This document shows, in pieces, positions 4,595 through 62,415 of a stretch of 64,000 nt of DNA (position 1 is the stretch's first letter; each line of letters starts with the position of its first letter). The notes under the pieces are model-generated. The model ran no database searches. It was not told the DNA's origin and saw nothing but the letters and a program-made list of their open reading frames with translations. Both the position numbers and the translations under genes were made by a program. Source of the stretch: Candidatus Parcubacteria bacterium (lineage in GTDB: Bacteria; Patescibacteriota; Minisyncoccia; Minisyncoccales; JAGMDC01); NCBI GenBank assembly GCA_023128895.1, contig JAGMDC010000003.1, positions 70,514 through 134,513 on the forward strand, in the 5' to 3' direction.

Positions 4595-4760
4595 ATGAGA
4601 GTGTGGGACAATATTTTTCGTAGCGAGAGTTTCAAAATTTGAGACAAATTTTTCAAATAATTTTTGAAACCTGTATGGAATACAAGTTGAGGAAATTTTT
4701 GGGAAATTTGACCGAATTTTGGAAGTTGCAGCAGAAAGGATATTGTTCTACACTCTCATA
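4595..4760. repeat. pair of inverted copies of a ~20-22-nt motif (ATGAGAGTGTGGGACAATAT at 4595-4614; GATATTGTTCTACACTCTCATA at 4739-4760) bounding a ~166-bp unit
   Basis: Seen in sequence; a third copy lies upstream of murA (21040-21061, minus). Confidence 0.6.
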
Positions 4761-4763
4761 ATT

Positions 4764-6644
<1,881 letters not shown>

Positions 6645-10046: not shown

Positions 10047-10063
10047 ATAATAGAAAAAGTAAA

Positions 10064-10084: not shown

Positions 10085-10202
10085 GAGTTGCCCGAAGGCG
10101 GTGTTTTACCTCGCTTCGCTCGGCAAAACGCGGGAGGTAGGTTCTCACCACACCCTTAGCAAGTAAGAATTTTAGGCGCCTTCGGCGCTTAAAAATTCTC
10201 AC

Positions 10203-10276
10203 TGGTGCCTAGGGCAGGAATCGAACCTACATTGGCCGCTTATGAGACGGTCTTAGACGCCAGTCTACTCCTAGGC
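10203..10276 (-). tRNA. tRNA-Met-like (anticodon CAT; elongator-type G1-C72), CCA encoded
   Basis: Acceptor GCCTAGG/CCTAGGC, D-stem TAGA/TCTA, anticodon loop CTCATAA, T-stem GTAGG/CCTGC; could also be tRNA-Ile2. Confidence 0.8.
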
Positions 10277-10990: not shown

Positions 10991-11270
10991 TTGCGGTGCC
11001 TGGAATTGCACCAGGGTCTCGAGCTTCTTTTATATTAACCATTTGTTTCCAAATGGAATGGACTATCCCATCCCCCCGCTTACTTAAATGGGGGGCTCTC
11101 ATTATAGTCTCTGAACCTTCCGAGCGCTCAAAGCGTTGAGTGCTTGGCTTGGCTGCTGATTGTCCAATTAAGGAGTTCCCAGCAATTTCGAGAGTTTGTC
11201 TGCGGAATATTACTATTCCGAGCCACACAATCTGTATGGGGCTCGCAAGATACTACTTCTCCACACCGCT
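10991..11270 (-). tRNA. tRNA(CAU) gene (Met/fMet/Ile2 type, A1xA72 mismatch) interrupted by a group I intron after nt 36
   Basis: Exons 11236-11270 and 10991-11026 fold into a cloverleaf (acceptor GCGGUG/CACCGC, D-stem GAGA/UCUU, anticodon stem CGAGC/GCUCG, loop CCCAU|AA, T-arm CCUGG-UGCAAUU-CCAGG). Confidence 0.75.
11027..11235 (-). ncRNA. group I intron (~209 nt, small bacterial tRNA-intron type)
   Basis: Conserved cores: P AAAUUGCUGGGAAC, Q AAUCAGCAGCCAAGCC, R GGUUCAGAGACUAUAA, S GGGAUAGUCC. P1 pairs exon GAGCCCCAU with IGS GUGUGGCUC with a U.G at the 5' splice site; the intron ends in G. Confidence 0.75.
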
Positions 11271-11943: not shown

Positions 11944-11977
11944 CTAAATTATTCTAAATTCTAAATTCTAAATTCTA
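11944..11977. repeat. heptamer tandem repeat (CTAAATT)x4-5
   Basis: Seen in sequence, intergenic. Confidence 0.8.
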
Positions 11978-17765: not shown

Positions 17766-18734
17766 TCAAAATTCTAACATCAGGGTTTCAAGGGCTAATC
17801 TGGTATTGATGTTAGTCGTAGCAAAAGAAAACTGGAGTTTTGAAATGGTCTTAATAATTTTTTGCAATTGTATTAGAGAATAATTTTTCTGTTTTGGATT
17901 CTGTTCCGCGGATTTCAAAGTATTTATTATTCTGTTCCTAATATGCCTGGACCAAATACTCAAGACTTTTTTAATGTCCTGCGGCTCTTGTTTAGACAAT
18001 TCCTGGACATATTGGAATCGCGCGAACAAATCAAATTGGCTCAATTTATTAAAATCTTTTACTCTTTGCTCTATCTCCAGCAATTTTTTTGGGTCTTTTA
18101 AAAAATTCAACGCCAAACCAGGCCTGCCCAAAGAAAAATCAACAATTTTTTCAATTTGAGATTCAGGAACACTTTGTTCTTTAATTTCCGCGCTGATTTC
18201 GCTTTTATCCACTAAAGAAAATTTAATTTTCTGAACCCTGGACAAAATGGTAGGCAAAATTCTGTCGGGATATTCAGTTATTAAAATAAAAAGCGCCCTT
18301 CCTTTTGGTTCTTCCAAAGTTTTCAAAAAAGAATTCTGCGCTTCCTGAGTCATAGAATGCGCCTGGTCTATCACGGCTGTCTTGAATAAAGAACGAGACG
18401 GGCTTAAAGAAAAATAATACTCTAATTTTCTTAATTGCGCGATTTTCATTTCTTTGTTGTCCGGCTTTAATAATGTAAAATCCGGAAAAATTCCTTTTTC
18501 AATATCACGGCAATTGCGGCAAACCCCGCATGGCTTGTTTGACTCTTTCTCGCCCGCCTGCAACGCTTTCGGCGTAGCCGATGCGGGCAGGCAATTCAGA
18601 AATTTAATAAATTCTATGGCTAATGTTTTCTTGCCAATATGCGACGGCCCATAAAATAAATAAGCGTGGGAAAGCCGTCCCAGCTTATAGGAATTTTCTA
18701 AAAATTTCCATTGTTTTTGATGCCCTAAAATCAT
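17766..18734 (-). CDS. holB: DNA polymerase III delta' subunit
   Basis: Walker A GPSHIGKKT and zinc module CGVCRNCRDI. Confidence 0.8.
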   Translation of the reverse strand: MILGHQKQWKFLENSYKLGRLSHAYLFYGPSHIGKKTLAIEFIKFLNCLPASATPKALQAGEKESNKPCGVCRNCRDIEKGIFPDFTLLKPDNKEMKIAQLRKLEYYFSLSPSRSLFKTAVIDQAHSMTQEAQNSFLKTLEEPKGRALFILITEYPDRILPTILSRVQKIKFSLVDKSEISAEIKEQSVPESQIEKIVDFSLGRPGLALNFLKDPKKLLEIEQRVKDFNKLSQFDLFARFQYVQELSKQEPQDIKKVLSIWSRHIRNRIINTLKSAEQNPKQKNYSLIQLQKIIKTISKLQFSFATTNINTRLALETLMLEF

Positions 18735-26400: not shown

Positions 26401-26415
26401 AAATAAAAAAATGAT

Positions 26416-26586
26416 GAGCGAGGCAACAAGCCCTCAATGGCAAACATCGGAGGCGCCTGAGCATGGTCCGAGCCCCCACACCTAATTTAGGTGTGGGGGC
26501 TCGGTCAGGCGCTGAGATATTAGACCCCAAAATCCCGCTGGGATTTTGAGGGTCGGTGCCTTGAGGACTTCGTTGCCGAGCGAATT
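26416..26586. repeat. ~170-nt structured intergenic element, copy 1 (between dnaK and dnaJ)
   Basis: Terminal ~20-bp inverted repeats GAGCGAGGCAACAAGCCCTCAA/TTGAGGGCTTCGTTGCCgaGCG, with internal hairpins CCGAGCCCCCACACC...GGTGTGGGGGCTCGG and CAAAATCCC-GCT-GGGATTTTG. Confidence 0.85.
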
Positions 26587-26595
26587 ATTTATGAA

Positions 26596-36751: not shown

Positions 36752-37407
36752 TTAATTTTCTCAAGGATTTCTTTGAAGACATCGTCAATCGGCTGTTCGC
36801 CGTTAATTTTAATAAGCCGATTTTGTTGTTTATAATACTCAACTACTTCTACAACTGTATTATCATAATAATCAAGACGATTATTTATGGCTTCAACGCT
36901 ATCATCGCGCCGAGTAATTAACTCTCCCCCGCATTTATCGCAAACTTTCAATTTCTTAAATTCGCCCACCCATGGAATTAATCGCCCACACTCCTTGCAA
37001 ATCCTTCTTTTGGTCAAACGGCCAATCGCTTCTTCTCTGGAAATATCAATTAATAAATTAAAAGTATTTTCTTTGCGTTCCAAAAATTCTAAAAATCTAT
37101 CTAATGCTTGCGCCTCGCTAACTCTGCGAGGAGCGCCATCAAGAATAAATCCCTGATCTTCTTTAAGATTATAAGCAAAACTATGCATCCATAAAGTTGC
37201 TGCCAAATCATCTAATGGGAATCCGCCCTCTCTCACAATTTTTTTAACTCTCGCGCCCGTGTCTGTGTCAGCTTTTAATAAATCTCTAAATAAATCACCA
37301 GTGGAAATATAACAAAAATCGCCAAATTCTTTCATTAAAAGTTTCGCTTGTGTCCCTTTGCCTGAACCAGACCTTCCTATTAAAGTAAAATTTATTGGTT
37401 TGTCCAT
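36748..37407 (-). CDS. adk: adenylate kinase with zinc-ribbon LID
   Basis: P-loop GRSGSGKGTQ; CKECG...CDKCG; start set at MDKPINF because the track's upstream extension lies inside repeat copy 2. Confidence 0.85.
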   Translation of the reverse strand: MDKPINFTLIGRSGSGKGTQAKLLMKEFGDFCYISTGDLFRDLLKADTDTGARVKKIVREGGFPLDDLAATLWMHSFAYNLKEDQGFILDGAPRRVSEAQALDRFLEFLERKENTFNLLIDISREEAIGRLTKRRICKECGRLIPWVGEFKKLKVCDKCGGELITRRDDSVEAINNRLDYYDNTVVEVVEYYKQQNRLIKINGEQPIDDVFKEILEKIK

Positions 37408-37417
37408 AATGATAAAT

Positions 37418-37589
37418 GAGCAAGGCAACAAGTCCTCAATGGCAAACATCGGAGGCGCCTGAGCATGGTCCGAGCCCCTACACCTAAATTAGGTGTGGGG
37501 GCTCGGTCAGGCGCTGAGATATTAGACCCCAAAACCCACCTTAGGGGTTTGAGGGTCGGTGCCTTGAGGGCTTCGTTGCCTTGCGAATT
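37418..37589. repeat. ~170-nt structured intergenic element, copy 2 (between secY and adk)
   Basis: Same architecture as 26416-26586 with compensatory substitutions in stems. Confidence 0.85.
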
Positions 37590-37599
37590 TAATTAAACG

Positions 37600-38877
37600 T
37601 TAAAATGTTTCGTAGTCCCTCATTTGCAATTGCGCGTTAATCTGCTTCATTGTTTCCAGCACAACTGACACAATAATCAAGAGAGCTGTTCCTCCCAACA
37701 AGAACTGAAACACCATCACGCCGGTAATTCCGCCTATAATAGACGGCATTATCGCGATAGTTCCCAAAAATAAAGCCCCAAAAAGCAAAATCCTGTTCAG
37801 AATATAATACAAAAAATTAGCAGTTGACTCTCCCGGCCTTATTCCAGGCACAAAGCCCCCCATTTTCTGCAAATTTGTTGCTATCGCCTTAGGGTCAAAA
37901 GTTACAGCAGTGTAAAAATAAGTGAACAGCACAACTAAAATAAAATACAAAGTCGCGTAGACCCAGGGATTTTGAAATAAATCCCCTACTGTTTGCGCGA
38001 CACTTCCAACTATGCCGCCCGCGCCTGCCAAAAAACTGGCGATCATTCCCGGGAAAAGCATTAGAGACAAAGCGAAAATAATAGGGATTACGCCTGCCGG
38101 ATTAATATTTAATGGCAAATAAGTTGAGACCCCGCCATACATTTTCTGCCCCCGCACTCTTTTTGCGTAAGAAACAGGGATATTCCGGCGCGCTTCGTTC
38201 ACAACAACCACGCCGGCAATTATAAGAATAGCCATTATGAAAAAAGCAATGTATGTAGGAATTGCGGAAGGATCCCAAGTGATAAACATCTGGCGAATAT
38301 TATTTGGAAAATCAGCAATAATTCCAGCGAAAATCAAAAGCGAAACTCCATTGCCAATTCCTTTTTCGGTAATCAGTTCTCCCAGCCACATTAAAAACAC
38401 GGCTCCAGCGACCACAGTTAAAATTGAACTGGCCATTAAAGCGGGTGAAAGAGAGCCGATAAGCCCCTGTCTTTGAAATAAAGTTAACATAGCAAATCCC
38501 TGCAATGTAGCCAAAGGCACAGTGAGCACTCTTCCATATTGATTAAATTTTTGCCTGCCTGCTTCCCCTTCCTCTTTATACATTTTTTCAAACGCGGGAA
38601 AAATCATGGTCAAAAGTTGTAAAATAATCACTGCTGTAATATACGGCCCCAATCCAAGCATCACAATGGAAAGATTGTCCAACGCCCCGCCGGTAAACAT
38701 ATTCATAAGCCCGAACATCTGATTTCTCTCAAAAAACTCTCTTAAATTTTCTATATCAATTCCGGGGATAGGAATATTCGCGCACAGCCGAAAAACAAAA
38801 AAAATAAATAAAACAAACAACATTTTATTGCGCAAATCGTGAATTTTCAATATTTGTATAAGTTTATCTAAAATCAT
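37600..38877 (-). CDS. secY: preprotein translocase SecY
   Basis: 10-TM SecY pattern. Confidence 0.95.
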   Translation of the reverse strand: MILDKLIQILKIHDLRNKMLFVLFIFFVFRLCANIPIPGIDIENLREFFERNQMFGLMNMFTGGALDNLSIVMLGLGPYITAVIILQLLTMIFPAFEKMYKEEGEAGRQKFNQYGRVLTVPLATLQGFAMLTLFQRQGLIGSLSPALMASSILTVVAGAVFLMWLGELITEKGIGNGVSLLIFAGIIADFPNNIRQMFITWDPSAIPTYIAFFIMAILIIAGVVVVNEARRNIPVSYAKRVRGQKMYGGVSTYLPLNINPAGVIPIIFALSLMLFPGMIASFLAGAGGIVGSVAQTVGDLFQNPWVYATLYFILVVLFTYFYTAVTFDPKAIATNLQKMGGFVPGIRPGESTANFLYYILNRILLFGALFLGTIAIMPSIIGGITGVMVFQFLLGGTALLIIVSVVLETMKQINAQLQMRDYETF

Positions 38878-39317: not shown

Positions 39318-39851
39318 TTACTTTTTAGTTTTTTTATCAACATCGCTACGCTCGCCTGCATCGCTATGCGAAGCATTGCGGGCAGGTGTGTTTCCTAACA
39401 TCTCTAACGCTGCAATAGTTGCTTTTGCGTTGTTTAATTTATTTCTGGTCTTCCCGAGTACCTTTGAAGATATATTTTTAATTCCAGCCAAAGAACAAAT
39501 TACCCTGACTGTGCCGCCTGCGACTAATCCTCTGCCTTCTTTTTGCGGCTTAAGCAGGACTTTTGCGGCTCCAAATTTGGAAATCACTTCATAAGGAATA
39601 GTGCCTTGTGAAATAGGAACTTTGATTAAATTCTTTTTTGCCAACCTGGTTGCTTTTTCTATGCCCTGCGCTACATCAGAACCCTTGGCCACTCCAACTC
39701 CAACTCTCCCTTTTTTATCGCCAACAACCATTACAGCGCGAAACCGAAGACGGCGGCCGCCAGCAGTCACCCGTGTTACTCTTGCCAAATCCAAAAGTTT
39801 AGAATCGAACTCGTCTTTTGGCTTATTTTTACGAAATCTTTGATTAAACAT
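39318..39851 (-). CDS. rpsE: 30S ribosomal protein S5
   Basis: uS5 pattern; start set at MFNQRF (the track extends to 39890). Confidence 0.9.
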   Translation of the reverse strand: MFNQRFRKNKPKDEFDSKLLDLARVTRVTAGGRRLRFRAVMVVGDKKGRVGVGVAKGSDVAQGIEKATRLAKKNLIKVPISQGTIPYEVISKFGAAKVLLKPQKEGRGLVAGGTVRVICSLAGIKNISSKVLGKTRNKLNNAKATIAALEMLGNTPARNASHSDAGERSDVDKKTKK

Positions 39852-39877
39852 AATAAAATAATAAATGATTTTTACTC

Positions 39878-39905
39878 TTGACAAAACCAATCAATGTGCT
39901 ATAAC
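39878..39905 (+). promoter_or_regulatory. sigma70-like promoter TTGACA-16-TATAAC
   Basis: Seen in sequence 20 nt upstream of the SD AAGGAGGT. Confidence 0.6.
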
Positions 39906-40211: not shown

Positions 40212-40613
40212 TTAAAATTTCAATCCTGCTTCGCGGGCTCCCTCTGCCAGGGCTTTCACTCTTCCGTGATATTTATATCCGCCTCTGTCAAAAACAATTT
40301 TTTTAATTTTCTTTTCCAGCGCTCTCTCGGCAACCAACTTCCCTACTGCGTATGCCAGCGCTGTTTTGCCTGCCTGCTCGGTAGGCAGGCCTGCCTGCTC
40401 GGTAGGCAGGGCCTTGCGGTCTCCAGCGTCTGGTTTTTTAATTTCTTTTTCCTGCGCCTCAACAATTGTATTCCCTTTTTCGTCATCAATAAGCTGCGCG
40501 TAAATATGCTGATGCGACCGAAAAACGCAAAGACGCGGAATTTTAATAGTTCCAGACACTTTTGCTCTCACCCGTTTATGCCGCCTAATTTTCTTTTCTT
40601 GTTTCTTTAACAT
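40212..40613 (-). CDS. rplR: 50S ribosomal protein L18 carrying an in-frame 14-aa insertion (LPTEQAG x2)
   Basis: uL18 C-terminal pattern; insertion encoded by the tandem palindromic 21-mers. Confidence 0.9.
40369..40410. repeat. tandem duplication of the palindromic 21-mer CCTGCCTGCTCGGTAGGCAGG inside the rplR coding sequence
   Basis: Seen in sequence; the same 21-mer occurs between genes at 41795 and, as a variant, at 50128. Confidence 0.85.
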
Positions 40614-40636
40614 ATTTTAACTTAAAAATAAATAAT

Positions 40637-40803
40637 GAGCGAGGCAACAAGCCCTCAATGGCAAACATCGGAAGCGCCTGAGCATGGTCTCCGAGCCACG
40701 CCTACTGGCGGGGCGAGGAGTCAGGCACTGAGATATTAGACCCCAAAATTCCGCTGGGAATTTTGAGGGTCGGTGCCTTGAGGGCTTCGTTGCCTTGCGA
40801 ATT
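40637..40803. repeat. ~170-nt structured intergenic element, copy 3 (between rplF and rplR)
   Basis: Outer helix and hairpin A conserved; hairpin B replaced by a different GC-rich hairpin. Confidence 0.85.
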
Positions 40804-40821
40804 GTTATAAACTACAAAACC

Positions 40822-41794: not shown

Positions 41795-41815
41795 CCTGCC
41801 TGCTCGGTAGGCAGG
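41795..41815. repeat. hairpin element CCTGCC-TGCTCGGTA-GGCAGG upstream of the rpsH start
   Basis: Identical 21-mer to the rplR insertion. Confidence 0.8.
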
Positions 41816-50127: not shown

Positions 50128-50147
50128 CCTGCCTGCCGATAGGCAGG
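50128..50147. repeat. hairpin CCTGCC-GATA-GGCAGG flanked by direct repeats GTTTCAAGTTT, immediately upstream of the tuf start
   Basis: Variant of the 21-mer element at 41795 and in rplR. Confidence 0.75.
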
Positions 50148-51116: not shown

Positions 51117-51170
51117 TTCTTATTCTATATTCTATATTCTATATTCTATATTCTATATTCTATATTCTAT
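51117..51170. repeat. heptamer tandem repeat (TATTCTA)x7 overlapping the fusA stop codon
   Basis: Seen in sequence. Confidence 0.85.
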
Positions 51171-53272
51171 ATTCTCTTGCCTTCAATGATTTCTTGTGTG
51201 ATGTTTGCAGGTATCTCTTCATAATCGTCAAATTCCATTGTGAAATTGCCTCTGCCCTGCGTCAGAGAACGTAAAGCAGTAGCATACCCAAACATTTCAG
51301 ATAAAGGAATTTTCGCGCTTATAACTTTCGTATTCAACCTATCTTCTGTTTCTTCAATCTTGCCGCGTCTGCTGGACAAATCGCCGATAACATCGCCGAA
51401 AAATTCTTCTGGAATAACTACTTCTAATTTCATAATTGGTTCTAATAGATACGCTTGCGCGCGCTTAGCCGCGCTCTGCAAAGCCATTGACCCGGCAATT
51501 TTAAACGCGATTTCAGAAGAATCAACCTCGTGGAAAGACCCGTCATATAGGGCGCAGGACAAATCAATCAATGGATAACCAGCCACAACGCCTTTTGACA
51601 TTGCTTCTTTAATTCCTTTTTCTACCGCCGAAATAAATTCTTTTGGAATAACTCCTCCTTTTATCTCGTCAATAAATTCAAAGCCCTCTCCTCTTTCTTT
51701 TGGCTCAACTCTGACCCAAACATGGCCGTATTGTCCCCTGCCGCCTGACTGCTTAATGTATTTCGCTTCTGCTTGAGCTTCTGTCTTAATTGTTTCTTTA
51801 TACGCAACCTGGGGCCTGCCAACATTTGCTTCAACATTAAATTCTCTTTTCATTCTATCCACAAGAATATCCAAATGAAGTTCGCCCATTCCGGAAATAA
51901 TTGTTTCGCCGGTGTCCGGGTCTCCTTTAATTTTGAAAGTCGGGTCTTCGTCTGACAATTTTTTAAGCGCCAAGCCCATTTTCTCCTGGTCTGCTTTTGT
52001 CTTTGGTTCAATGCGGATGGAAATTACCGGCTCTGGGAAAGTAATCTCTTCTAAAATCACAGGAGCGTTTTCCGCGCACAAACTATTTCCAGTTCCAGTA
52101 TTTTTAAGACCCACTGTTGCCGCGATGTCGCCGGCAAATAATTCATCAACCTCCTCCCTTTCCGCGGCATGCATTCTCAAAATTCTTCCCAAACGCTCTT
52201 TTTCGCCAGTATTGGCGTTTACGATATAAGAACCCTTTATTATAGAACCGGAATAAACTCTGAAATATGTCAAGGTTCCCACATAAGGGTCTGCGGCGAT
52301 TTTGAAAGCCAAAGCGCAGAACGGTTCGTCATCGCTTGCTTTCTTTTCAACCTCCTTGTTTGTCTTGGGGTCTATGCCTTTAATTGGAGGCAGGTCAACA
52401 GGCGAAGGCAGGTAATCAACAGCAGCGTCCAATACCAGCTGAACTCCGGTATTTTTCAGCGCTGAACCGCAAAATACTGGAATCAGTTTATAGTCAATAG
52501 TTGCTTTTCTTAAAACTTGTTTGATTTTCTCAACAGGAATTTCTTTGCCGGCAAGATATTGCTCCAACATTTCCGCATCTTCCGCAGCAACTTTTTCAAT
52601 AAGTTTTTCGCGCCATTTTTTCGCGTCGTCTAATAAATCCGCAGGAACCTCTTCTTCCTTCACTTCCTCGCCTAACTTGCCCCCAAATCTCATTGCCTTC
52701 ATAGACAGCAAATCAATCACGCCTTTAAGATTTTCTTCCAAACCAATGGGAATCTGCATTGCTACAGCATTAGGGGAAAGTTTTTGCCCAATTGAAGCAA
52801 AACTCTTTTCAAAAGACGCGCCCATTCTGTCTAATTTATTTATAAAACAAATTCTTGGAACATTAAATTTATCTGCCTGTCGCCACACTGTTTCTGACTG
52901 CGGCTCCACTCCGGCAACTCCGTCAAAAACAACCACAGCGCCGTCCAGTACCCGCAGAGACCTTTGGACCTCCACTGTAAAGTCAATATGTCCGGGAGTG
53001 TCAATAATATTTATCCTGTGTTCATTGGTCTTGTCTTTTGTGGTATATTCTCTTGGAGACCAAAAACAAGTTGTTGCCGCGGAAGTAATGGTTATACCTC
53101 TTTCCCGCTCCTGTTCCATCCAGTCCATAACTGCCTCGCCCTCGTGGACTTCGCCGATTTTATGGGAAATTCCCGTGTAAAACAAAACACGCTCGGTAAA
53201 TGTTGTCTTGCCGGCGTCAATATGAGCTATTATACCTATGTTACGATATTTTTCTATTGAATATTTGCGCAT
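51167..53272 (-). CDS. fusA: elongation factor G
   Basis: [14 protein letters not shown] and EF-G domain IV/V patterns. Confidence 0.95.
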
Positions 53273-53361: not shown

Positions 53362-53417
53362 AGAATAGAATTTAGAATATAGAATTTAGAAGAATTATTC
53401 CAGATTCTATATTCTAT
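53362..53417. repeat. heptamer repeats (TAGAATT/TAGAATA) with an inverted copy ATTCTATATTCT; overlaps the rpsG stop
   Basis: Same TTCTAWA family as 51117 and 11944. Confidence 0.8.
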
Positions 53418-54416: not shown

Positions 54417-54591
54417 TTTTGTAAAAAAAATTGCCCAAAATAGGATGCATTTTTCTGCTCGCTCCTGCCCGCAACGCTTCGCGTAGCGATGCAGGCGGGC
54501 GGAAAAGTAAATAAACTCGCTTCGCTCGCTTATTTTCTTTTCGCTCACTTCTCAAAAAAATGAGGACGCAGCGCGCCCCATAAATTATGTA
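54417..54591. repeat. ~170-bp conserved 3' tail of cassette copy 1, with a GC-rich palindromic core (54464-54502)
   Basis: Near-identical to 55853-56020 (1 indel). Confidence 0.9.
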
Positions 54592-54593
54592 TA

Positions 54594-55457
54594 CTATATT
54601 GTCTCGAGTTTTTTTACGAGTTTATCGACTCTCCTATCGAGTTTCCTTCTAGAAATTTTACCCGAATTCCATTTTTTAGAAAGTTCTATAATCTCTGCCC
54701 GTTCTCTGCCAATCACTATTACTCCCTTATCCCGCAATTTTTCATAAACTCGCGCAGGTTTCTTCAAACCTTTTCTTGGATAGGTTTGCCATGTCAGCAT
54801 ATGGTCCGCCGCTTTCATGATCAGCTTTATTTGCTCTCTGTCAAGCCAGTCAAATCCGAGAAACTTATCTACACTATCCAACAAATTTTCGTGCGCAAAA
54901 ATTTCATTTGCTAAACTCTCTACCGTGCCATGGCATACCATCTGATATATAATCTCCCGCAAGACTTGAGTTCTATACTCTTTCTCGTCTATCCCGACTT
55001 CCTTCACTGCTTCAATCATCTTCTCCACATTATGCGGAAAAGATAATTTACTCGTATTCAGAAACATCTCTTTCCACGGCTCTTTATCTAAACCCTGGCC
55101 TATTCTCTGCGAAAACTGGCTCACTGTTCTTACTTCCTCAACAGTGAAATGTCTGCGGATATCCCTGAACAAAAGGAGCAAACTCGTTCGTCCCAAACTA
55201 ACCATGTCTAATGTTGTGAGCAAACGCAAATCAATGTCTGCAGGAATTTTCAATATTGCTTCCAGCACATCTAGCCAATTTCTCTTGCGCCACGCGTCCC
55301 AAACTTTGCTAATTTGCTCATTTAAGAACAAATTCTTTTGCTCGCTGAAAAATTCCTCGCCCGCCGCGTCCAGAAATCCTATTTCTGAAAGATATGCAAA
55401 CTCTTCTTCTTTCAAAACCGATTTTGCTTTTATTTCTTCTTCCACTTTTATACCCAT
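54594..55457 (-). CDS. 287-aa hypothetical protein P1 (cassette copy 1)
   Basis: Paralogue of 56024..56887: the N-terminal ~150 aa are ~90% identical at DNA level, the C-terminal half diverged. Confidence 0.7.
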   Translation of the reverse strand: MGIKVEEEIKAKSVLKEEEFAYLSEIGFLDAAGEEFFSEQKNLFLNEQISKVWDAWRKRNWLDVLEAILKIPADIDLRLLTTLDMVSLGRTSLLLLFRDIRRHFTVEEVRTVSQFSQRIGQGLDKEPWKEMFLNTSKLSFPHNVEKMIEAVKEVGIDEKEYRTQVLREIIYQMVCHGTVESLANEIFAHENLLDSVDKFLGFDWLDREQIKLIMKAADHMLTWQTYPRKGLKKPARVYEKLRDKGVIVIGRERAEIIELSKKWNSGKISRRKLDRRVDKLVKKLETI

Positions 55458-55458
55458 T

Positions 55459-55650
55459 TTATACCTCCTTTTTTTCTTTCAAATTCTGCTCCCATAATTC
55501 ATCTCTTCTCTCTTTTTCCGCTTTTTCCAACAGGACTTCGCAGCGCTTCACATTTTCCTGCGCTTCCTCCAACTCATTTTTTTTCAACTCAACATATGCC
55601 TTAGCAAGCCCAACTCTGGCCCTGCAAGACTCAACCTCTCTTTCGCCCAT
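55459..55650 (-). CDS. 63-aa coiled-coil protein (cassette copy 1), translationally coupled to P1
   Basis: Stop TAA then ATG of P1 1 nt later; SD GGAGG inside its 3' end; shares the C-terminus ..LWEQNLKEKKEV with 56891..57079. Confidence 0.6.
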   Translation of the reverse strand: MGEREVESCRARVGLAKAYVELKKNELEEAQENVKRCEVLLEKAEKERRDELWEQNLKEKKEV

Positions 55651-55721
55651 TTTTTTTCCTATCTTTTCTGATCAAAACACTTTCCTTAGTATGCTTTCCT
55701 CTACAAATTGTAATGTGCTTC

Positions 55722-55782
55722 TCTGATATCCATTATATTACAATTTTCTCCTAAATTGTCAAATAACTTTCAGCGCGCCGAG
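55722..55782 (-). promoter_or_regulatory. cassette 1 promoter TTGACA-17-TAATATAAT with the downstream operator-like palindrome TACAAATTGTA
   Basis: Duplicated at 57137-57197. Confidence 0.65.
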
Positions 55783-55852
55783 GCCACAGCGAAGTGACCT
55801 CGGCAGAATACCTTCGCTTGATGGTGGGGTATTAAAAATGTATCCCTGAGGT

Positions 55853-56020
55853 ACATTTGTAAAAAAAATTGCCCCAAATAGGATGCATTTTTCTGCTCGC
55901 TCCTGCCCGCAACGCTTCGCGTAGCGATGCAGGCGGGCGGAAAAGTAAATAAACTCGCTTCGCTCGCTTATTTTCTTTTCGCTCACTTCTCAAAAAAATG
56001 AGGACGCAGCGCGCCCCATC
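55853..56020. repeat. ~170-bp conserved 3' tail of cassette copy 2
   Basis: Direct repeat of 54417-54591. Confidence 0.9.
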
Positions 56021-56023
56021 ATA

Positions 56024-56887
56024 TTATTTTATTTCTATCGCAAGCCCGGCTTTCTTGATTACCCGCTTGACTTTCCTGACCATTTTTTCATATGAGAATT
56101 TATTTCTGTCGTATCCGTCGCGAATCTCTATTATCTTCTCTCTCGCTTCACCAATCCAGACATCGTGTCCCTCTTCTATTAGCGTTTTATACACATTGCA
56201 CGCGGCTCTAAAACTCTTTCGCGACAGCAGAGTATCACCTGCTTGTAACAGTTCTCTTGCGTGCATCTGTTGCCCGTGCATATACTTATCCATATATGCC
56301 ACAATTTCAACAAAATCACTGTTACCCTCTAGATATTCAACCAAACCTTGGTTTTCCTTGGTTATTTCAATCATGTGTTCCCAAATTACTTGTATATACT
56401 CGTCTTTGTCTATCCTTGTTTCCGCTACTGCTTCAATCATCTTTTCTATGCCGTCCTCCGCATCTGGAAAATACTTTCTTGCCATTTCCAGAAACATCTC
56501 TTTCCACGGCTCTTTATTTAAATCCTGACCTGCTCTCCGCGAAAACTGACTCACTGTTCTTACTTCCTCAATAGTGAAATGTCTGCGGATATTCCAGAAC
56601 AAAAGGAGCAAACTCGTTCGTCCCAAATTAACCATGTCTAATGTTGTGAGTAAACGCAAATCAATGTCTGAATCAATGTCTGCAGGAATTTTCAATATTG
56701 CTTCAAGCACGCCTAGCCAATTTCTCTCGTACCACGCGTCCCAAACTTTGCTAACTTGCTCATTTAAGAACAAATTCTTTTGCTCGCTGAAAAATTCCTC
56801 GTCTGCCGCATCCCAAAACCCTACTCCTAAAAGATACGCAAACTCTTCTTCTTTCAAAACCGATTTTGCTTTTATTTCTCCTACCAT
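56024..56887 (-). CDS. 287-aa hypothetical protein P2 (cassette copy 2)
   Basis: See P1. Confidence 0.7.
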   Translation of the reverse strand: MVGEIKAKSVLKEEEFAYLLGVGFWDAADEEFFSEQKNLFLNEQVSKVWDAWYERNWLGVLEAILKIPADIDSDIDLRLLTTLDMVNLGRTSLLLLFWNIRRHFTIEEVRTVSQFSRRAGQDLNKEPWKEMFLEMARKYFPDAEDGIEKMIEAVAETRIDKDEYIQVIWEHMIEITKENQGLVEYLEGNSDFVEIVAYMDKYMHGQQMHARELLQAGDTLLSRKSFRAACNVYKTLIEEGHDVWIGEAREKIIEIRDGYDRNKFSYEKMVRKVKRVIKKAGLAIEIK

Positions 56888-56890
56888 ATC

Positions 56891-57079
56891 TTATACCTCC
56901 TTTTTTTCTTTCAAATTCTGCTCCCATAATTTATCGTCTTCCTCTTTTTCCACTTGTTCTAATTGTCCTTTCCAATACGCCAAATCTTCCATCGCTCCCT
57001 CAAATGCCACTCTTTTTCGCTCAACATCCATCTCTGCGGCCTCAACCATACGCTTACAATGCTCTTTTTTTTCTTCCAC
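56891..57079 (-). CDS. 62-aa coiled-coil protein (cassette copy 2), GTG start
   Basis: SD AAGGAGG 9 nt upstream of the GTG. Confidence 0.55.
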   Translation of the reverse strand: MEEKKEHCKRMVEAAEMDVERKRVAFEGAMEDLAYWKGQLEQVEKEEDDKLWEQNLKEKKEV

Positions 57080-57136
57080 TTTTCATGCCTCCTTTTTTTT
57101 CTTTCATTATAGCACTCGCCTCAATATGCTTGCCTC

Positions 57137-57197
57137 TACAAATTGTAATGTGCTTCTTTGGTATCCATTATATTACAATTTTCTCCCAATTTGTCAA
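57137..57197 (-). promoter_or_regulatory. cassette 2 promoter + operator palindrome
   Basis: Same as 55722-55782. Confidence 0.65.
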
Positions 57198-57232
57198 ATA
57201 ACTTTTAGTGAATTTCACTCCCAAGCACAATT

Positions 57233-57272
57233 AAAATGACAATCCGTGCCAACGCGCACGGATTGTCATTTT
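57233..57272. terminator. perfect 17-bp inverted repeat AAAATGACAATCCGTGC-caacgc-GCACGGATTGTCATTTT (bidirectional terminator)
   Basis: Seen in sequence after the stop of the M50 peptidase gene. Confidence 0.75.
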
Positions 57273-57310
57273 AATGATAATATTGCTTTCCCTCGTAGTT
57301 TTCGCACTTC

Positions 57311-57952
57311 TCAAAAGAACGGAACGCCGACGATTAAATAAAACAAATAGTTAATCAAAGGCAATATCCATTGAAGGCAGAAAAAAATCACGAAAAGCAA
57401 AATAAACAAACCGTACTGAGTTAAAATGATTTTTACATTTTCCATACTTCGCGGCAGAAACGCGAAAAGAATATGAGACCCGTCCAACGGCGGGATTGGC
57501 AAAAGATTAAACACTGCTAAAAGCAGATTAACCCATACAATATATCCGAAAACAAAAATCAAACTCTGGGAAAAATGGTCCATTCCAAAAGGCAAAAATC
57601 TCAATAATAACCCAAACACAATTGCCAATGAAATATTTGCCAAGGGTCCTGCGGCGCCGACTTTTGCCGCGCCGTATTTCTGGTCTCGGAAATTATACGG
57701 ATTTATTGGAACTGGCTTTGCCCAACCGAAAATCACGCCAGCGCCAGTAAGCATACTTGTTAAAATCAAAAACCCTGGCACAATGATAGAACCTATTGGG
57801 TCCAAGTGCTTTAATGGATTTAATGTCAGACGGCCAGCCATTTTCGCGGTGGGGTCGCCCAAAAAATTAGCGACTTCGCCGTGCGCAACCTCATGTATCA
57901 CAACCGAAAAAAGAAATATAATAATAATTAAAATCAATACAAAAATTTCCAT
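57311..57952 (-). CDS. M50-family site-2 protease-like membrane metalloprotease
   Basis: HEVAHG motif, multi-TM. Confidence 0.8.
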   Translation of the reverse strand: MEIFVLILIIIIFLFSVVIHEVAHGEVANFLGDPTAKMAGRLTLNPLKHLDPIGSIIVPGFLILTSMLTGAGVIFGWAKPVPINPYNFRDQKYGAAKVGAAGPLANISLAIVFGLLLRFLPFGMDHFSQSLIFVFGYIVWVNLLLAVFNLLPIPPLDGSHILFAFLPRSMENVKIILTQYGLFILLFVIFFCLQWILPLINYLFYLIVGVPFF

Positions 57953-58053
57953 ATTTTTATTATATCAAAAAATCAAACTCTTGCCAAATTTTTGGAAATG
58001 GTCTATGATAACGATTGACTAATTATCATTTATCAGTAATCATTTATCTAATT

Positions 58054-58269
58054 ATGAAACAGTGTCCTATTTGCCAAAAAAAATCAATAATGGCACGAAA
58101 GTTGAACAAACTAAGGGGAAAGTATAACCCAAGCCCTAAAAAACGAAAATATCCCAATCTGCAATGGGTAAGAGTTCCTATGGATGTAAAACCAAAATTC
58201 AAGGAATTTGCGGGCAAAAGAATTCTTGCCTGCACAAAATGCATTAAATCGCTTTCAAAATTAAAATAA
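58054..58269 (+). CDS. rpmB: 50S ribosomal protein L28 (Zn-ribbon)
   Basis: CPICQKK...ACTKC; start set at MKQCPIC. Confidence 0.75.
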   Translation: MKQCPICQKKSIMARKLNKLRGKYNPSPKKRKYPNLQWVRVPMDVKPKFKEFAGKRILACTKCIKSLSKLK

Positions 58270-58271
58270 CA

Positions 58272-58304
58272 AAAGCCCTAATATCAGGGCTTTCGTTTTA
58301 TTTT
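58272..58304 (+). terminator. rho-independent terminator AGCCCT-AATATC-AGGGCT + T-run
   Basis: Seen in sequence. Confidence 0.8.
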
Positions 58305-58350
58305 CGGCGATTTTTTTTTACAAAAAAAATCCCGCATTTGCGAGATAAGT

Positions 58351-58520
58351 TAAAGCCCTGCGTTCTTTTTGTTGCAAAGATCACTAGATAGTCAAAGCCC
58401 TGCGTTCTCTTTAGAATCTGGAAAGCAATCCATAAGGGTGCTCCCTTTTGTTGCAAAGATCACTAGATAGTCAAAGCCCTGCGTTCTCTTTAGAATCTGG
58501 AAAGCAATCCACGTGGGTGT
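58351..58520. repeat. 79-bp tandem repeat, ~2.2 copies
   Basis: Units 58367-58431 and 58446-58510 identical; partial leading copy. Confidence 0.85.
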
Positions 58521-58672
58521 CCGCATACATAGCCCAAGGGCTATCTAAATATAGAACTCCCGAAGAAAACTTTTGTCCCAGAATCTATTTAGAAAACAAC
58601 AGGACCATTATCAGTGTAGCATATTTTACCCCCAAAAGTCAATACTAAATTTTACAGCTGCGTAGGTCACTG

Positions 58673-59737
58673 TTAAACTTTTAGGATATCAACTAATTGA
58701 TGGATTAGGGACAGAACAACCGGAGGAGGCATTAAACTGTAAACTGGCTCGTTCTTTTCATCTTGGACTACCCATGGCTTTTCAATTATTCTCGCTTTTC
58801 CTTCCTGTTTATCCCATTGATAAGAATATGCGGGAGTAATCTCATATTTATCAATATATTCGTCTGCCTTGTCCACGGGCACTGAATTTCTTAATAAAAT
58901 TTTGGGAATTCCGCGCAAAGAAAATGCTTTCTTGATTAACTCATCGTCTAAATTCAATCGCTCCCTTATCGGCTTTATGCCAAACTCGTCCCCTTCTTTT
59001 TGGAGCATTTCCGCGTTCTCGCACCCTGGCTCGTCGCACATTAGAAAAAATTCCTTTTCCTGCTCCCTGTATCCGATTTTTGAAGTCGGCAATAATTTCA
59101 AATTTCTTGATGTCTTGCACTTTGGACAAACCCTTCTGTATTTTATTCTCTCATCAATTATATTTTCCGGTACATCAATCAAAACAAAAATATCAGGATC
59201 CTGCCTGTAATCAATCAAATCCCTAAAAAACAAAGAAAAGCCAATCTGGTCCAGTGCCCTGGGAAAACCGTCAATGAAAATCGCTTTGCCTTTTTGTTTG
59301 GCTATTTCCCTTTTAACCAAACATAAAACCAATTCTGTTGGAAGCAATTTTTTTGTGCTTCTTAACTCCAATAAGGAAATTATTTCTTCAATCCCGAGCC
59401 AGCCGCGATAATTATTTTTCAGAAATTCAATCAATTGCGCGCGCTTGTCTTTGTCTTTCAATTCCTCGTCTATTTCCCTTGCCATATCCCCTACTGAAAA
59501 ATGGAATATTTTTTCAGGGCCTATTATTTCGGCAAACATTTTCGCGTAAGTCCCTTTGCCTGAATTTTTTTTGCCCAGAAGATAAATAATAAAACTATTG
59601 TGTTCCAAATATTCTTTTATTTTTTTTATTTCCTTTTCTGCCTTCAATTCAAAATACTCCTTTCTTTGCGCAGGGTCTGTTAAATCAAATTTCTTGTCTA
59701 TATCTTGTTTCTTTGTCTTAAAAAGAGGAAAGTCCAT
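58673..59737 (-). CDS. adenylate-kinase-family P-loop protein with zinc ribbon and a ~120-aa C-terminal extension
   Basis: GKKNSGKGT P-loop; CPKCK...CDEPGC. Confidence 0.6.
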   Translation of the reverse strand: MDFPLFKTKKQDIDKKFDLTDPAQRKEYFELKAEKEIKKIKEYLEHNSFIIYLLGKKNSGKGTYAKMFAEIIGPEKIFHFSVGDMAREIDEELKDKDKRAQLIEFLKNNYRGWLGIEEIISLLELRSTKKLLPTELVLCLVKREIAKQKGKAIFIDGFPRALDQIGFSLFFRDLIDYRQDPDIFVLIDVPENIIDERIKYRRVCPKCKTSRNLKLLPTSKIGYREQEKEFFLMCDEPGCENAEMLQKEGDEFGIKPIRERLNLDDELIKKAFSLRGIPKILLRNSVPVDKADEYIDKYEITPAYSYQWDKQEGKARIIEKPWVVQDEKNEPVYSLMPPPVVLSLIHQLVDILKV

Positions 59738-60623
59738 AATTATCTTGCGTTTTAATTTTTAAATTACTGCCATCGGAAAAAATTTTAATGTCGCCGTTTT
59801 GGTCTGTTCTTAATATATTTATATCAAATTTTTCCAAAGTTGCCAATGTTTCAGGATATGGATGCCCATATCTATTATTTCTCCCGCACTGTATCACCGC
59901 GATTTTTGGACTCACTGCTTCAATAAATTCCTGTGCTGTTGATGTTTTGCTCCCGTGATGCCCGACTTTCAGCACATCTGAATCCAAATAAATCCCTTCT
60001 TCTATCAATTCATTCTCTACTGATTTGAAAGCGTCGCCTGTGAATAAAAAAGAATTTTCTCCAAAACTTAAACGCGCGATAACAGAAGTGTTATTAACGC
60101 TCTTAATTTCCTGACTTTCTAAACTCTCAAATGGATAAAGGACTTCCAGTTTATAATATTCAGAACTATTGCCTGAAAAAATTTTCACACCCGCTTGCGC
60201 TATAATTATATTCGCGCCTTCGTCTTGAATAATTTTTTGCCACTCCTTATATTCTGCCGTGTTTCTTATAATGCCTGTCCATAAAATATTTTCCACTTTG
60301 TATGATTTCAACACTTCAATCAGGCCCGCTATATGGTCGTGCTCCGGATGGGTCAAAATAATCAAATCAATTGTCCTGTCCCAATACGGCATTGTTTGCG
60401 ATAATTTTCTCAAAATCGCTGTACTGCTAGGTCCGCCGTCAATTAAAATCTGGTGCTGTTGCGGCGTTTGAATAAAAATCGCGTCGCCTTGGCCTATATC
60501 AAAAAAATTGACTTCTAATGGCTGGGGTTTGGTTAAATCCCATAAAATCAATCCAGCTGTAGCGTTGCACAGAAGCAGACCAAACAAAATATATTTTGTA
60601 TAATTAATCTCTTTCTTGTACAC
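59718..60623 (-). CDS. metallo-beta-lactamase-fold hydrolase (ComEC C-terminal-domain-like), membrane anchored
   Basis: HPEHDHIAG motif. Confidence 0.75.
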   Translation of the reverse strand: MYKKEINYTKYILFGLLLCNATAGLILWDLTKPQPLEVNFFDIGQGDAIFIQTPQQHQILIDGGPSSTAILRKLSQTMPYWDRTIDLIILTHPEHDHIAGLIEVLKSYKVENILWTGIIRNTAEYKEWQKIIQDEGANIIIAQAGVKIFSGNSSEYYKLEVLYPFESLESQEIKSVNNTSVIARLSFGENSFLFTGDAFKSVENELIEEGIYLDSDVLKVGHHGSKTSTAQEFIEAVSPKIAVIQCGRNNRYGHPYPETLATLEKFDINILRTDQNGDIKIFSDGSNLKIKTQDNYGLSSF

Positions 60624-60643
60624 GATTATGTAATCATATTCAA

Positions 60644-60678
60644 ATAGCCAAAAACCGCTTTCAGCGGTTTTTGGCTAT
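60644..60678. terminator. hairpin CCAAAAACCGCT-TTCA-GCGGTTTTTGG
   Basis: Seen in sequence. Confidence 0.75.
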
Positions 60679-60698
60679 TTGATAACTATCAAAATCTG

Positions 60699-60878
60699 TT
60701 ACTTTTTGCTCGGAAGAATTTTAAACATCTTTGTCCCGCATTCAGGGCAAATTCCTGTCATTGCTCTTCTCTTTGTTCCGCCTTTGCCTTTCATAGTAAT
60801 TTCCTTCGGATCATTCATAGTTCTTTTTTCTTTACATTTTACGCAATAAGCGATATTTTCAGTTTTTTCTTCAGCCAT
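60699..60878 (-). CDS. 59-aa zinc-ribbon protein (CVKCKEK...CPECGTKMF), not in the supplied ORF track
   Basis: Hand translation: MAEEKTENIAYCVKCKEKRTMNDPKEITMKGKGGTKRRAMTGICPECGTKMFKILPSKK. Confidence 0.55.
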   Translation of the reverse strand: MAEEKTENIAYCVKCKEKRTMNDPKEITMKGKGGTKRRAMTGICPECGTKMFKILPSKK

Positions 60879-61023
60879 AATATTAAATAATTAATAATTA
60901 ATAATTCTCCGACCTTTACCCTGTTAAATAATTTCGCCTTTGGCGAAATTGCCGCAAAGCGGCATTTAACGGGGTGAACTTTTCTACAACTTTATTTTAC
61001 CTTAAATCAAGTAAAAAAGATAG

Positions 61024-62415
61024 TCAACCCCTATCATTGCGAAATTTATTCTGGAAAAAATCTTTGAGGTCTTTGACTTTTATTCTTTGCTGCTTCATTG
61101 TAATGCGGTCACGGACTGTTAAATCATCATTTTCCAATGTTTCAAAATCTATTGTCAGGCAGAAAGGCGTGCCAATTTCGTCCTGGCGGCGGTAGCGGCG
61201 GCCTATTGAGCCAACCTCGTCATACTGGCAAACAAACTTAAATTTTAACAACTGATATACTTCTTTTGCTTTTTTTACCAAATCCGGCTTGTTTTTTACT
61301 AATGGAAAAACAGCGATTTTCACAGGCGACAAGCGCTTATCCAAGTTTAGAACCGCCTCAACCTCTTTCACTGATTTGGTTGTTTCTGTTCTTCCGCCTT
61401 TTATCTCGGAATACGCCTCGCATAGAAACGCCAAAGCGCTTCTTCCTACTCCAACAGATGTTTCAATAACATAAGGCGTATATTTCTCTTTTGTGTCAGG
61501 GTTAAAATACTTTAATTCCTCTTTGCTGTGTTTGGTATGATTAGATAAATCATAATCTCCCCTATTATGGACTCCTTCTATTTCCTTCCATCCAAAGGGA
61601 AACTTGTATTCAATGTCAATTTGCCTCTTAGCGTAATGCGCTCTGTCCTTTCTTGGTATTTCTATGGCGCGCAGGTTTTCTTTTTTAATCCCTAAATCAA
61701 TATACCAGTTCATTCGCTGTTCTTTCCAATATTCAAACCAGTCATCCGGAGTTTTCGCGTCTTTCGGATTACCCGCCCGCATCGCTACGCTTCGCTTGCG
61801 AAGCGTTGCGGGCGGGGAGAACCATTGCATTTCCATTTGCTCAAACTCGCGCACGCGAAAAATAAAATTTCCCGGAGTTATCTCGTTTCTAAACGCTTTG
61901 CCAATTTGCGCGATTCCGAAAGGCGGCTTCAGGCGCATGGAATTCATCACATTCAAAAAATTTACATAAATCCCCTGACAGGTTTCAGGCCTTAAATACG
62001 CAATAGAACTGTCATCTTCAACAGGCCCAACAAATGTTTTCATCATCAAATTAAATTTTTTCGGCTTTGTGAGCCCGCCGCCGCACTCCGGACAAATATT
62101 TTTTTGAAGTTCATCCAGCTTAAATCGCTTGTGGCATTTCCTGCACTCAACTAATTCATCGGCAAACCCGGCTGTAAGATGGCCTGACGCCTGCCATACT
62201 TTTGGCGACATTAAAATACTCGCGTCTATCCCAACAATATTATCCTGTTTTTTTGTCATTTCATCCCACCAGAGTTGTTTAATATTTCTTTTCATCTCCG
62301 CGCCCAACGGCCCAAAATCATAACAACTGCCAAAACCGCCGTATATCTCTGACGACAAAAAAACAAATCCGCGGCGTTTGCACAAAGATATAATTTTATC
62401 CATTAAATTAATCAT
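61024..62415 (-). CDS. glyQS: glycyl-tRNA synthetase (alpha2 type) with an in-frame palindromic-element insertion
   Basis: Class II motifs; FRNEITPGNFIFRVREFEQMEMQWF. Confidence 0.9.
   Translation of the reverse strand: MINLMDKIISLCKRRGFVFLSSEIYGGFGSCYDFGPLGAEMKRNIKQLWWDEMTKKQDNIVGIDASILMSPKVWQASGHLTAGFADELVECRKCHKRFKLDELQKNICPECGGGLTKPKKFNLMMKTFVGPVEDDSSIAYLRPETCQGIYVNFLNVMNSMRLKPPFGIAQIGKAFRNEITPGNFIFRVREFEQMEMQWFSPPATLRKRSVAMRAGNPKDAKTPDDWFEYWKEQRMNWYIDLGIKKENLRAIEIPRKDRAHYAKRQIDIEYKFPFGWKEIEGVHNRGDYDLSNHTKHSKEELKYFNPDTKEKYTPYVIETSVGVGRSALAFLCEAYSEIKGGRTETTKSVKEVEAVLNLDKRLSPVKIAVFPLVKNKPDLVKKAKEVYQLLKFKFVCQYDEVGSIGRRYRRQDEIGTPFCLTIDFETLENDDLTVRDRITMKQQRIKVKDLKDFFQNKFRNDRG
61772..61817. 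repeat. GC-rich palindromic element CCCGCCCGCATCGCTACGCTTCGC-TTGC-GAAGCGTTGCGGGCGGGG inside glyQS (encodes ..SPPATLRKRSVAMRAGNP..)
   Basis: Related in sequence to the cassette-tail core at 54464-54502. Confidence 0.8.

Follow-up and report, generated by a model that had tools for sequence, protein, structure and literature searches.

The stretch analysed here, referred to as the window, is a 64,000-nt portion of a Candidatus Parcubacteria bacterium genome (positions 70,514 to 134,513 of contig JAGMDC010000003.1, assembly GCA_023128895.1), and the subject of the analysis is a short GC-rich DNA hairpin repeat found there in five copies, two of them intergenic and three in frame within essential genes. 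The host genes are those encoding glycyl-tRNA synthetase (GlyRS; 463 aa, 61024..62415, minus strand), identified by Pfam tRNA-synt_2b and HGTP_anticodon and by a match to GlyRS in the PDB (E=4e-144); ribosomal protein S5 (39318..39890, minus strand; PDB S5, E=2e-36); and a delta'/gamma-like clamp-loader subunit of DNA polymerase III, here called HolB/DnaX-like (17766..18734, minus strand; PDB gamma/tau, E=2e-24, and delta', E=1e-12).

Copies were located using a covariance model (CM) built from 26 distinct 36-nt members of the family and scanned across the whole window with filters off. The model was restricted to 36-nt forms because a MAFFT alignment of the 36-nt and 39-nt forms together was structure-inconsistent. 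Exactly five sites matched, and no other site in the window did. Two 36-nt copies of identical sequence are located at 54464-54499 (plus strand, 62.6 bits, E=4.7e-12) and 55902-55937 (plus strand, 62.6 bits, E=5e-12), in the intergenic tails of a duplicated cassette. The in-frame copies comprise 36 nt in the tail of S5 (39351-39386, minus strand, 57.7 bits, E=6e-11), 45 nt in GlyRS (61772-61816, minus strand, 51.6 bits, E=1.5e-9), and a 39-nt variant in the clamp-loader gene (18553-18591, plus strand, 39.2 bits, E=9e-7). The core 15-mer CCCGCAACGCTTCGC matched the window eight times when up to 3 mismatches were allowed, against 1.0 expected, and none of 100 shuffles reached 8. The first-pass annotation of this DNA had described three of the copies, all recovered by the CM, and had missed those in the S5 tail and the HolB/DnaX-like gene; it placed the second cassette-tail copy at 55910-55949, about 8 nt off, and was right that both tails carry the core. 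Its remark that GC content lies far above the surroundings also stands, at 0.64-0.73 for the copies and 0.377 for the window. The palindromes that it listed as relatives at 6758-6810 and 6872-6889 do not belong to the family, since neither scores as a member in the CM scan; the nearest match around 6.8 kb is an unrelated hairpin at 6972-6992 with an E-value of only 7.7.

The cassette that carries the intergenic copies is about 1438 bp long and is tandemly duplicated at 54418-57290. It contains ORFs (open reading frames) of 287 aa and 63 aa that have no significant Pfam match. The first copy lies within a 164-nt cassette tail (54418-54581), approximately 95 nt downstream of the 287-aa ORF (54594..55457, minus strand), and the second lies in the corresponding 164-nt tail at 55856-56019; both tails belong to repeat D4. 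The tails are 99% identical, compared with 74-91% for the gene bodies, which suggests from the identity values that the hairpin-bearing tail was recently homogenised. Rfam offered no family for the hairpin, either in a scan of the whole window at the gathering threshold or around one hairpin copy at E<=10. Neither strand has a T-run after the hairpin as an intrinsic terminator would, and three of the five copies lie within ORFs. All five palindromes belong, as copies without a gene, to a widespread family of short DNA hairpin repeats.

The commonest form of the family is the 36-nt sequence CCTGCCCGCAATGCTTCGCATAGCGATGCAGGCGGG, which was identical in 31 loci among the at least 120 listed. Folded as single-stranded DNA (ssDNA), it has a 4-nt head (CCTG), then the stems CCCGC/GCGGG, TGC/GCA, and TCGC/GCGA, and a closing 3-nt loop; across the family, the head is a single-stranded CCYG and is followed by a three-tier GC-rich stem. 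DNA folding energies of the variants range from -11 to -23 kcal/mol (z = -2.3 to -6.6). Changes in the stem are paired (ATGC/GCAT to ACGC/GCGT), a GC-richer type in GC-rich hosts has T12/A30 replaced by C12/G30, and the loop positions vary freely. The 39-nt type has TCAGC/GCTGA in place of TCGC/GCGA plus one further base, for a net gain of 3 nt, so that the compensating base pair and the single base together keep both the stem and the reading frame. The clamp-loader copy in the window has the stems CCTGC/GCAGG, CGC/GCG, and TCGGC/GCCGA. In the 45-nt forms, 9 apical nucleotides are an inverted duplication of the adjoining arm, and the GlyRS copy, which had initially been taken for a fuller version of the element, is really the 36-nt core with these 9 apical bases added and is not ancestral. 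Nearly all of the 127 copies counted are 36, 39, 42, or 45 nt long. The hairpin is under structural constraint. A different account of the variants, in which the inner segment is flipped against fixed arms, was dropped after comparison of the folds, which favoured compensatory changes in the arms (CCCGC/GCGGG to CCTGC/GCAGG and TGC/GCA to CGC/GCG).

A scan of species-representative genomes yielded at least 120 loci, and the hairpin, often base-for-base identical, was present in at least 120 species genomes across several phyla. Hosts within the Patescibacteria include Nomura-, Giovannoni-, Moran-, Davies-, Roizman-, Collier-, Berkel-, Jorgensen-, and Saccharibacteria. Further hosts are Verrucomicrobiota, Kiritimatiellia, Margulisiibacteriota, Bdellovibrionales, low-GC metagenome-assembled genomes (MAGs) labelled Gammaproteobacteria, and one Woesearchaeota MAG, and locus GC among the convincing matches ranged from 0.27 to 0.66. 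Only 4 matches were obtained in 2.9 million viral contigs, and phages are therefore not an obvious reservoir. No literature was found on the exact sequence, on the peptides that it encodes, or on palindromic elements in Patescibacteria.

The GlyRS copy is translated in frame, as had been proposed, and reads ..WFSPPATLRKRSVAMRAGNPKDAKTP.. in the protein; the element itself encodes (S)PPATLRKRSVAMRAG in frame F2, and the peptides expected across its junctions include WFSPPATLR and NTPARNASHSDAGER. Alignment to orthologues bore out the suggestion that this segment is an insertion. The closest orthologues (P0002-P0005 and P0007, 80-86% identical) have WF..P followed directly by KDAKTPD.W and lack the peptide, empty versions read WFCNSKDAK.. 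and WFCDPKDAK.., the segment is missing from most Parcubacteria GlyRS among the 120 best homologues, and mycobacterial GlyRS structures have an 18-residue gap at this place. Deletion of the 45-nt element from the window gene leaves WFSNPKDAKTPDDW, equal in length to the empty P0003 sequence WFCNSKDAKIPDDW and to its relatives, and the insertion site has no target-site duplication. The segment could instead have been in the protein ancestrally, or be an artefact of assembly, and the former would agree with two more distant orthologues, P0006 and P0008 (76-78% identical; P0008 is the gene in locus L076), which carry a 45-nt copy at the identical nucleotide position with the asymmetric inner bases flipped. 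Against this, the closer orthologues are without the segment and its DNA belongs to a dispersed repeat family, while the insert-bearing gene is identical on 9 contigs assembled from ENA, NCBI, and Logan samples and is for that reason not an assembly artefact; either explanation is regarded as extremely improbable.

The segment lies in a hypervariable part of the protein. GlyRS residues ~200-222 (window 61750-61820) differ widely, and many homologues (P0010-P0104) have unrelated K/T/R/N-rich inserts of 10-45 residues here, for example KTTRNRRETKRETDAKNW; among Parcubacteria, the length of the loop ranges from 0 to 45 residues. One homologue from another organism, P0066, has a 39-nt copy in the same loop, with 38 of 39 nt matching the clamp-loader copy of the window. 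An AlphaFold2 model of the window protein places the insert (residues 202-216) between a strand (193-200) and two helices (217-220 and 223-240) as a short predicted helix with pLDDT ~65-69; the model has a mean pLDDT of 72.5 and a poor catalytic domain, and is too weak for judging surface exposure.

A second pair of filled and empty sites was found at the cassette. On contig L008, whose GlyRS is 85% identical to that of the window, the orthologous intergenic tail reads ..TTTACTTTTCCG joined directly to AGCGA.GCAGAAAAATGC.., and thus lacks exactly the 36 nt of the hairpin; it is otherwise conserved relative to the window tail 54418-54581 and has no target-site duplication. Alignment of the two pairs indicates that the hairpin is gained and lost as an exact unit without duplication of the target, so that target-site duplications of the kind expected of miniature inverted-repeat transposable elements are absent at both.

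The remaining in-frame copies of the window occupy comparable places. The S5 copy sits in the C-terminal tail, reading ..GNTPARNASHSDAGERSDVDKKTKK up to the stop codon, and encodes PARNASHSDAGE in frame F1, the commonest frame; the match to solved S5 proteins stops short of the hairpin-bearing tail. Directly after this copy, at 39339-39350, the sequence AGCGTAGCGATG repeats part of the element core and may be what is left of another, truncated copy. The clamp-loader copy reads ..LNCLPASATPKALQAGEKESNKPCGVC.. in the protein and encodes LPASATPKALQAG in frame R2, and the insert coincides with a 12-residue gap in E. coli gamma/tau. In other genomes, conserved motifs identified, among the hosts, TrpRS, MetRS, Val/IleRS, a release factor, RadA, ribonucleotide reductase, enolase, LepA/EF, S9, and an aspartase/fumarase-family enzyme. 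Insertion in frame within essential genes is a general behaviour of the hairpin family.

Reading frames were compared in hosts below 48% GC, because frame calls in GC-rich hosts are unreliable, and a copy was counted as intragenic if it lay in an ORF of at least 120 codons. By this definition, 49 of 79 copies (62%) are inside ORFs. Frame F1 (peptide PARNASHSDAGG) accounts for 36 of these, R2 (PPASL.EALRAG) for 8, and F2 (LPAMLRIAMQAG) for 3; R1 (PACIATRSVAGG, in L059) and R3 (RLHRWAKHCGQ, in L130) were each used once, and F3, which contains a TAG stop, was never used. Compared with an even distribution over the five open frames, F1 is significantly in excess (binomial p=1e-15), the insertions in ORFs are oriented forward in 39 cases and reverse in 10, and lengths not divisible by three occur only outside ORFs. 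Because of these length and frame statistics, the hairpin is read as translated, with selection purging copies that break the frame or bear a stop. The preference for F1 is most simply attributed to its peptide being the most hydrophilic and loop-like, and the forward bias in orientation may add to it.

Removal of the hairpin at the RNA level or by ribosomal bypassing would be an alternative to translation. Yeast mitochondrial GC clusters and byp elements are short GC-rich palindromes that invade an AT-rich genome, coding regions included, and byp elements are skipped by the ribosome. The element resembles them as a short GC-rich palindrome that has invaded an AT-rich genome and its coding regions, it is very stable, and some copies split tRNA-like sequences. 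Unlike the organellar byp elements, it has frame and length statistics that point to translation: intragenic lengths are always multiples of three, the stop-containing frame is not used, no ORF was found that is repaired by deleting the element, and the split tRNA pieces are fragments beside intact tRNA copies rather than interrupted functional genes. Removal is accordingly considered very unlikely.

Retention for a function of the host, either as a protein-binding or regulatory DNA or RNA hairpin or as a useful peptide module, would account for the extreme conservation of the sequence and for the strong preference for one frame with a hydrophilic peptide. Presence and absence nevertheless differ between close orthologues without effect on the gene, the hairpin is carried by unrelated proteins, in five reading frames, and by non-coding DNA, and there is neither a T-run after it nor a matching Rfam family; such a function is judged improbable. 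The reading preferred here is that the hairpin is an insertion-polymorphic repeat translated in frame, to which a probability of roughly 0.9 is assigned. Selection would keep an intragenic copy only if its length is a multiple of three and its frame is free of stops, and the surviving copy would then be translated as a hydrophilic loop or tail of 12-15 residues in a permissive part of the protein, which in the window would be the hypervariable GlyRS loop, the C-terminal tail of S5, and the spacer before the zinc module of the clamp loader.

A candidate partner gene emerged from the neighbourhoods of the hairpin. ORF clustering over 120 loci gave housekeeping families and one small recurrent non-housekeeping family of ~80 aa, which was assigned to Pfam GIY-YIG (E=9e-15; 81 aa, single domain). 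The nearest solved structures are the UPF0213 proteins 1zg2 and 1ywl, and NCBIfam gave no match for the protein. The GIY-YIG ORF lies within 50 nt of the hairpin in 7 of the ~120 element-anchored loci. In the other direction, 80 metagenome loci totalling 221 kb were fetched by anchoring on the GIY-YIG protein, and the CM identified 20 distinct sites in 16 of them, all ~130 nt or less from the gene and none elsewhere in the 221 kb; a regex analysis of the same loci agrees with the CM. A hairpin stands on each side of the gene in three loci, and in L142 the ORF is nested inside the hairpin, between its arms. GIY-YIG genes without the family hairpin are flanked by AT-richer inverted repeats (ACCCTGTGAAATA ... 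TATTTCACAGGGT). Proteins with the C-terminal motif KTGFGRAYLKRR go with the GC hairpins, and those with KT.YGKMFLKKR, which form a separate protein cluster, go with the AT-rich inverted repeats; repeat type and protein therefore co-vary. These neighbourhoods indicate that, in other genomes, the hairpin is the motif cognate to a clade of single-domain GIY-YIG nucleases of ~80 aa.

Several loci share a layout in which a 5' (or 3') tRNA fragment split by the hairpin is followed by the GIY-YIG ORF and then by the same tRNA in intact form (L057, L058, L102, L133, and L139; L029 and L033), and gene-less versions were found in L105 and L027. This arrangement suggests that the cassette inserts into tRNA genes and brings a replacement piece along. 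The idea that functional tRNA genes are interrupted by the hairpin was rejected, since ARAGORN restored no tRNA when the element was deleted with a range of boundaries; the tRNA pieces beside the hairpin are 5' or 3' fragments that adjoin an intact copy.

Spread without a dedicated enzyme was weighed against these data. Hairpin-mediated template switching, gene conversion, or repair could produce copies, with the GIY-YIG cassettes and tRNA fragments merely sharing fragile or permissive sites, and this would fit the 9-nt apical extensions, as inverted duplications of an adjoining arm are expected from template switching, as well as the homogenised look of the cassette tails and the variable orientation of the hairpin beside the GIY-YIG ORF. 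It is hard to hold without specific recognition, because identical 36-mers occur in different phyla and in hosts from 30% to 60% GC, all 20 sites in the GIY-YIG loci are close to the gene, and the repeat type follows the C-terminal motif of the protein. We consider it unlikely on balance.

Movement by another class of enzyme was also considered. Repetitive extragenic palindromes (REP) and REPINs are, like the hairpin, imperfect GC-rich palindromes of 20-40 nt that have a short single-stranded head, exist in many copies, and do not duplicate the target, and the element could be of this type, moved by a REP-associated tyrosine transposase (RAYT) or by an HUH (Y1) transposase of the IS200/IS605 family, with the GIY-YIG association being secondary. 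The 4-nt single-stranded head and the missing target duplication, as in ssDNA transposition by HUH enzymes, agree with this. REPs, however, are extragenic and species-specific, have a GTAG or CGTC head, and go with a Y1 (RAYT) transposase; the hairpin has the head CCYG, is chiefly intragenic in low-GC hosts, and is shared between phyla. The ten largest ORF clusters of the 120 loci, all housekeeping, include no transposase (a survey of these loci only, and not an exhaustive one), and GIY-YIG is the sole recurrent non-housekeeping family beside the element. Such an origin is thought rather improbable.

Among known intragenic repeats, the Rickettsia palindromic elements (RPE) were the comparison drawn initially. 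RPE are reported (Ogata et al. 2000) to be about 100-150 bp long and restricted to Rickettsiales, and to lie in frame within essential genes, where a preferred frame is translated in permissive parts of the protein. The likeness holds for behaviour, as the hairpin is a palindromic repeat inserted in frame within protein-coding genes (GlyRS, S5, HolB, and the other intragenic copies in low-GC hosts), essential ones among them, and with a preferred frame. It does not extend beyond behaviour: the hairpin is 36-45 nt long and nearly unchanged across phyla, and RPE are set apart by size and host range and presumably by an unrelated sequence. By analogy, the closest mechanistic relatives of the hairpin would be the hairpin repeats tied to small GIY-YIG nucleases and not RPE.

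Those repeats belong to the Ssn proteins, which are single-domain GIY-YIG proteins (CDD cd10448; Chenal et al. 2025, PMC11893778). Ssn proteins bind a hairpin repeat (NTS/SRM) as ssDNA only and cut beside the hairpin, the repeat flanks the ssn gene in 71% of homologues and occurs as hundreds of dispersed copies; according to the authors, who draw a comparison with REP/RAYT, the NTS-ssnA-NTS arrangement resembles an insertion sequence (PMC11893778). The system described here likewise has a small single-domain GIY-YIG gene flanked on one or both sides by a hairpin (the Ssn repeat measures 20-50 nt), a repeat that is also dispersed without the gene, and a repeat type that co-varies with the protein. 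It differs in that the hairpin has no CGTC head and in that NTS repeats are rarely in genes (2%; PMC11893778), compared with 62% of hairpin copies, intragenic and in frame, in low-GC hosts. Patescibacteria, tRNA fragments, and in-frame copies are not mentioned in the Ssn paper (PMC11893778), which places Rickettsia and Wolbachia among the genomes with more than 300 SRM repeats; this listing may hint at a deeper link between RPE and the Ssn repeats. Relatives of the window genome also contain a second clade of small GIY-YIG genes (L007, 1300-2050; L120, 1300-2100), flanked by several CGTCATTGCGAGG...CCTCGCAATGACG hairpins that carry the classical CGTC tag, as the published Ssn repeats do; the window itself lacks the classical CGTCATTGCGAGG motif. 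To judge from sequence and gene context, the best description of the element is a hairpin repeat that is Ssn-like and associated with GIY-YIG genes, with an intragenic lifestyle resembling that of RPE.

By analogy with Ssn and REP/RAYT, recognition of the folded hairpin in ssDNA, and its dispersal or excision, would fall to the nuclease. The tiny GIY-YIG nuclease probably recognises or moves the hairpin. We assign a probability of about 0.6 to the nuclease being the functional partner of the hairpin. More tentative is the full proposal that the hairpin and the ~80-aa GIY-YIG gene constitute a minimal selfish element that moves via ssDNA, is exchanged across phyla, and is the source of the stereotyped 12-15-residue peptides (PARNASHSDAGG and its frame variants) in essential Patescibacteria proteins; this is possible, and we would sooner doubt it than assume it. 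Several observations weigh against a nuclease-driven element. The 64-kb window contains no GIY-YIG ORF, so the link to the nuclease is drawn for this genome from other genomes. A CM-detectable hairpin was present in just 16 of the 80 GIY-YIG loci, the rest having other inverted repeats, and the orientation of the hairpin relative to the ORF varies. No target motif emerged from the flanks of the copies, and the SRM consensus HGTCWY..YYVSBRH..WNVSBRG..RNCYNB had 0 matches in the window and in the five copies with their flanks. The three GlyRS copies (window, P0006, and P0008) share both their position and the rare 45-nt length, which fits repeated insertion at a hot spot and, equally well, a single old insertion that was later lost precisely elsewhere and flipped in place. 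Finally, no GIY-YIG protein of this sort is known to have transposition activity.

Selfish DNA in essential genes has been known chiefly from Rickettsia; these results extend it to the candidate phyla radiation and further, with a hairpin of just 36 nt that is near-invariant between phyla. Some puzzling inserts in Patescibacteria proteins (aminoacyl-tRNA synthetases, ribosomal and replication proteins) are explained, and in annotation the peptides PARNASHSDAGG, PPASL.EALRAG, and LPAMLRIAMQAG can be used to flag element-derived segments. Ssn-type GIY-YIG nucleases gain a concrete and testable role as partners of mobile hairpins, so far only a hypothesis in the literature, and the natural nuclease/hairpin pairs are a resource for ssDNA tools. 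If the minimal selfish element is real, it would be the first prokaryotic transposition-like system driven by a GIY-YIG nuclease and a significant source of lineage-specific insertions in the reduced genomes of Patescibacteria.

Other repeats were noted in the window. A 21-nt mini-hairpin, CCTGCCTGC-TCGGT-AGGCAGG, occurs as two tandem copies at 40369-40410 (plus strand), in frame in ribosomal protein L18, where the region corresponds to a 16-residue gap in the comparison with B. subtilis L18, and as single copies in intergenic leaders at 41795-41815 and 50128-50147. Its arm alone resembles the main family and the CM gives it only E~2, so that a relationship is uncertain. A repeat of ~185 nt is present in three copies (26405-26589, 37407-37605, and 40626-40819) in intergenic gaps in or near the ribosomal-protein operon; the copies have a mean identity of 86%, with compensatory changes in two internal hairpins and no Rfam match, and the repeat is a candidate structured RNA or second mobile element. 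Two intergenic copies of a 74-nt direct repeat (58367-58440 and 58446-58519) are 96% identical and 79 nt apart from start to start. Arrays of 7-nt units (TATTCTA and TAAATTC), both direct and inverted, flank the EF-G gene at 11950-11990, 51121-51175, and 53365-53416. A group I intron match (Rfam, 78 bits, E=4e-18) was obtained at 11039-11248 on the minus strand, near the tRNA genes at 9969-10276. A 641-aa ORF (4719..6644) contains an AACCAG array encoding PEPEPEPE and then a GC-rich stretch encoding PRPRLPQLSRLPRLLRLPRP (5464-5559 and 5620-5683).

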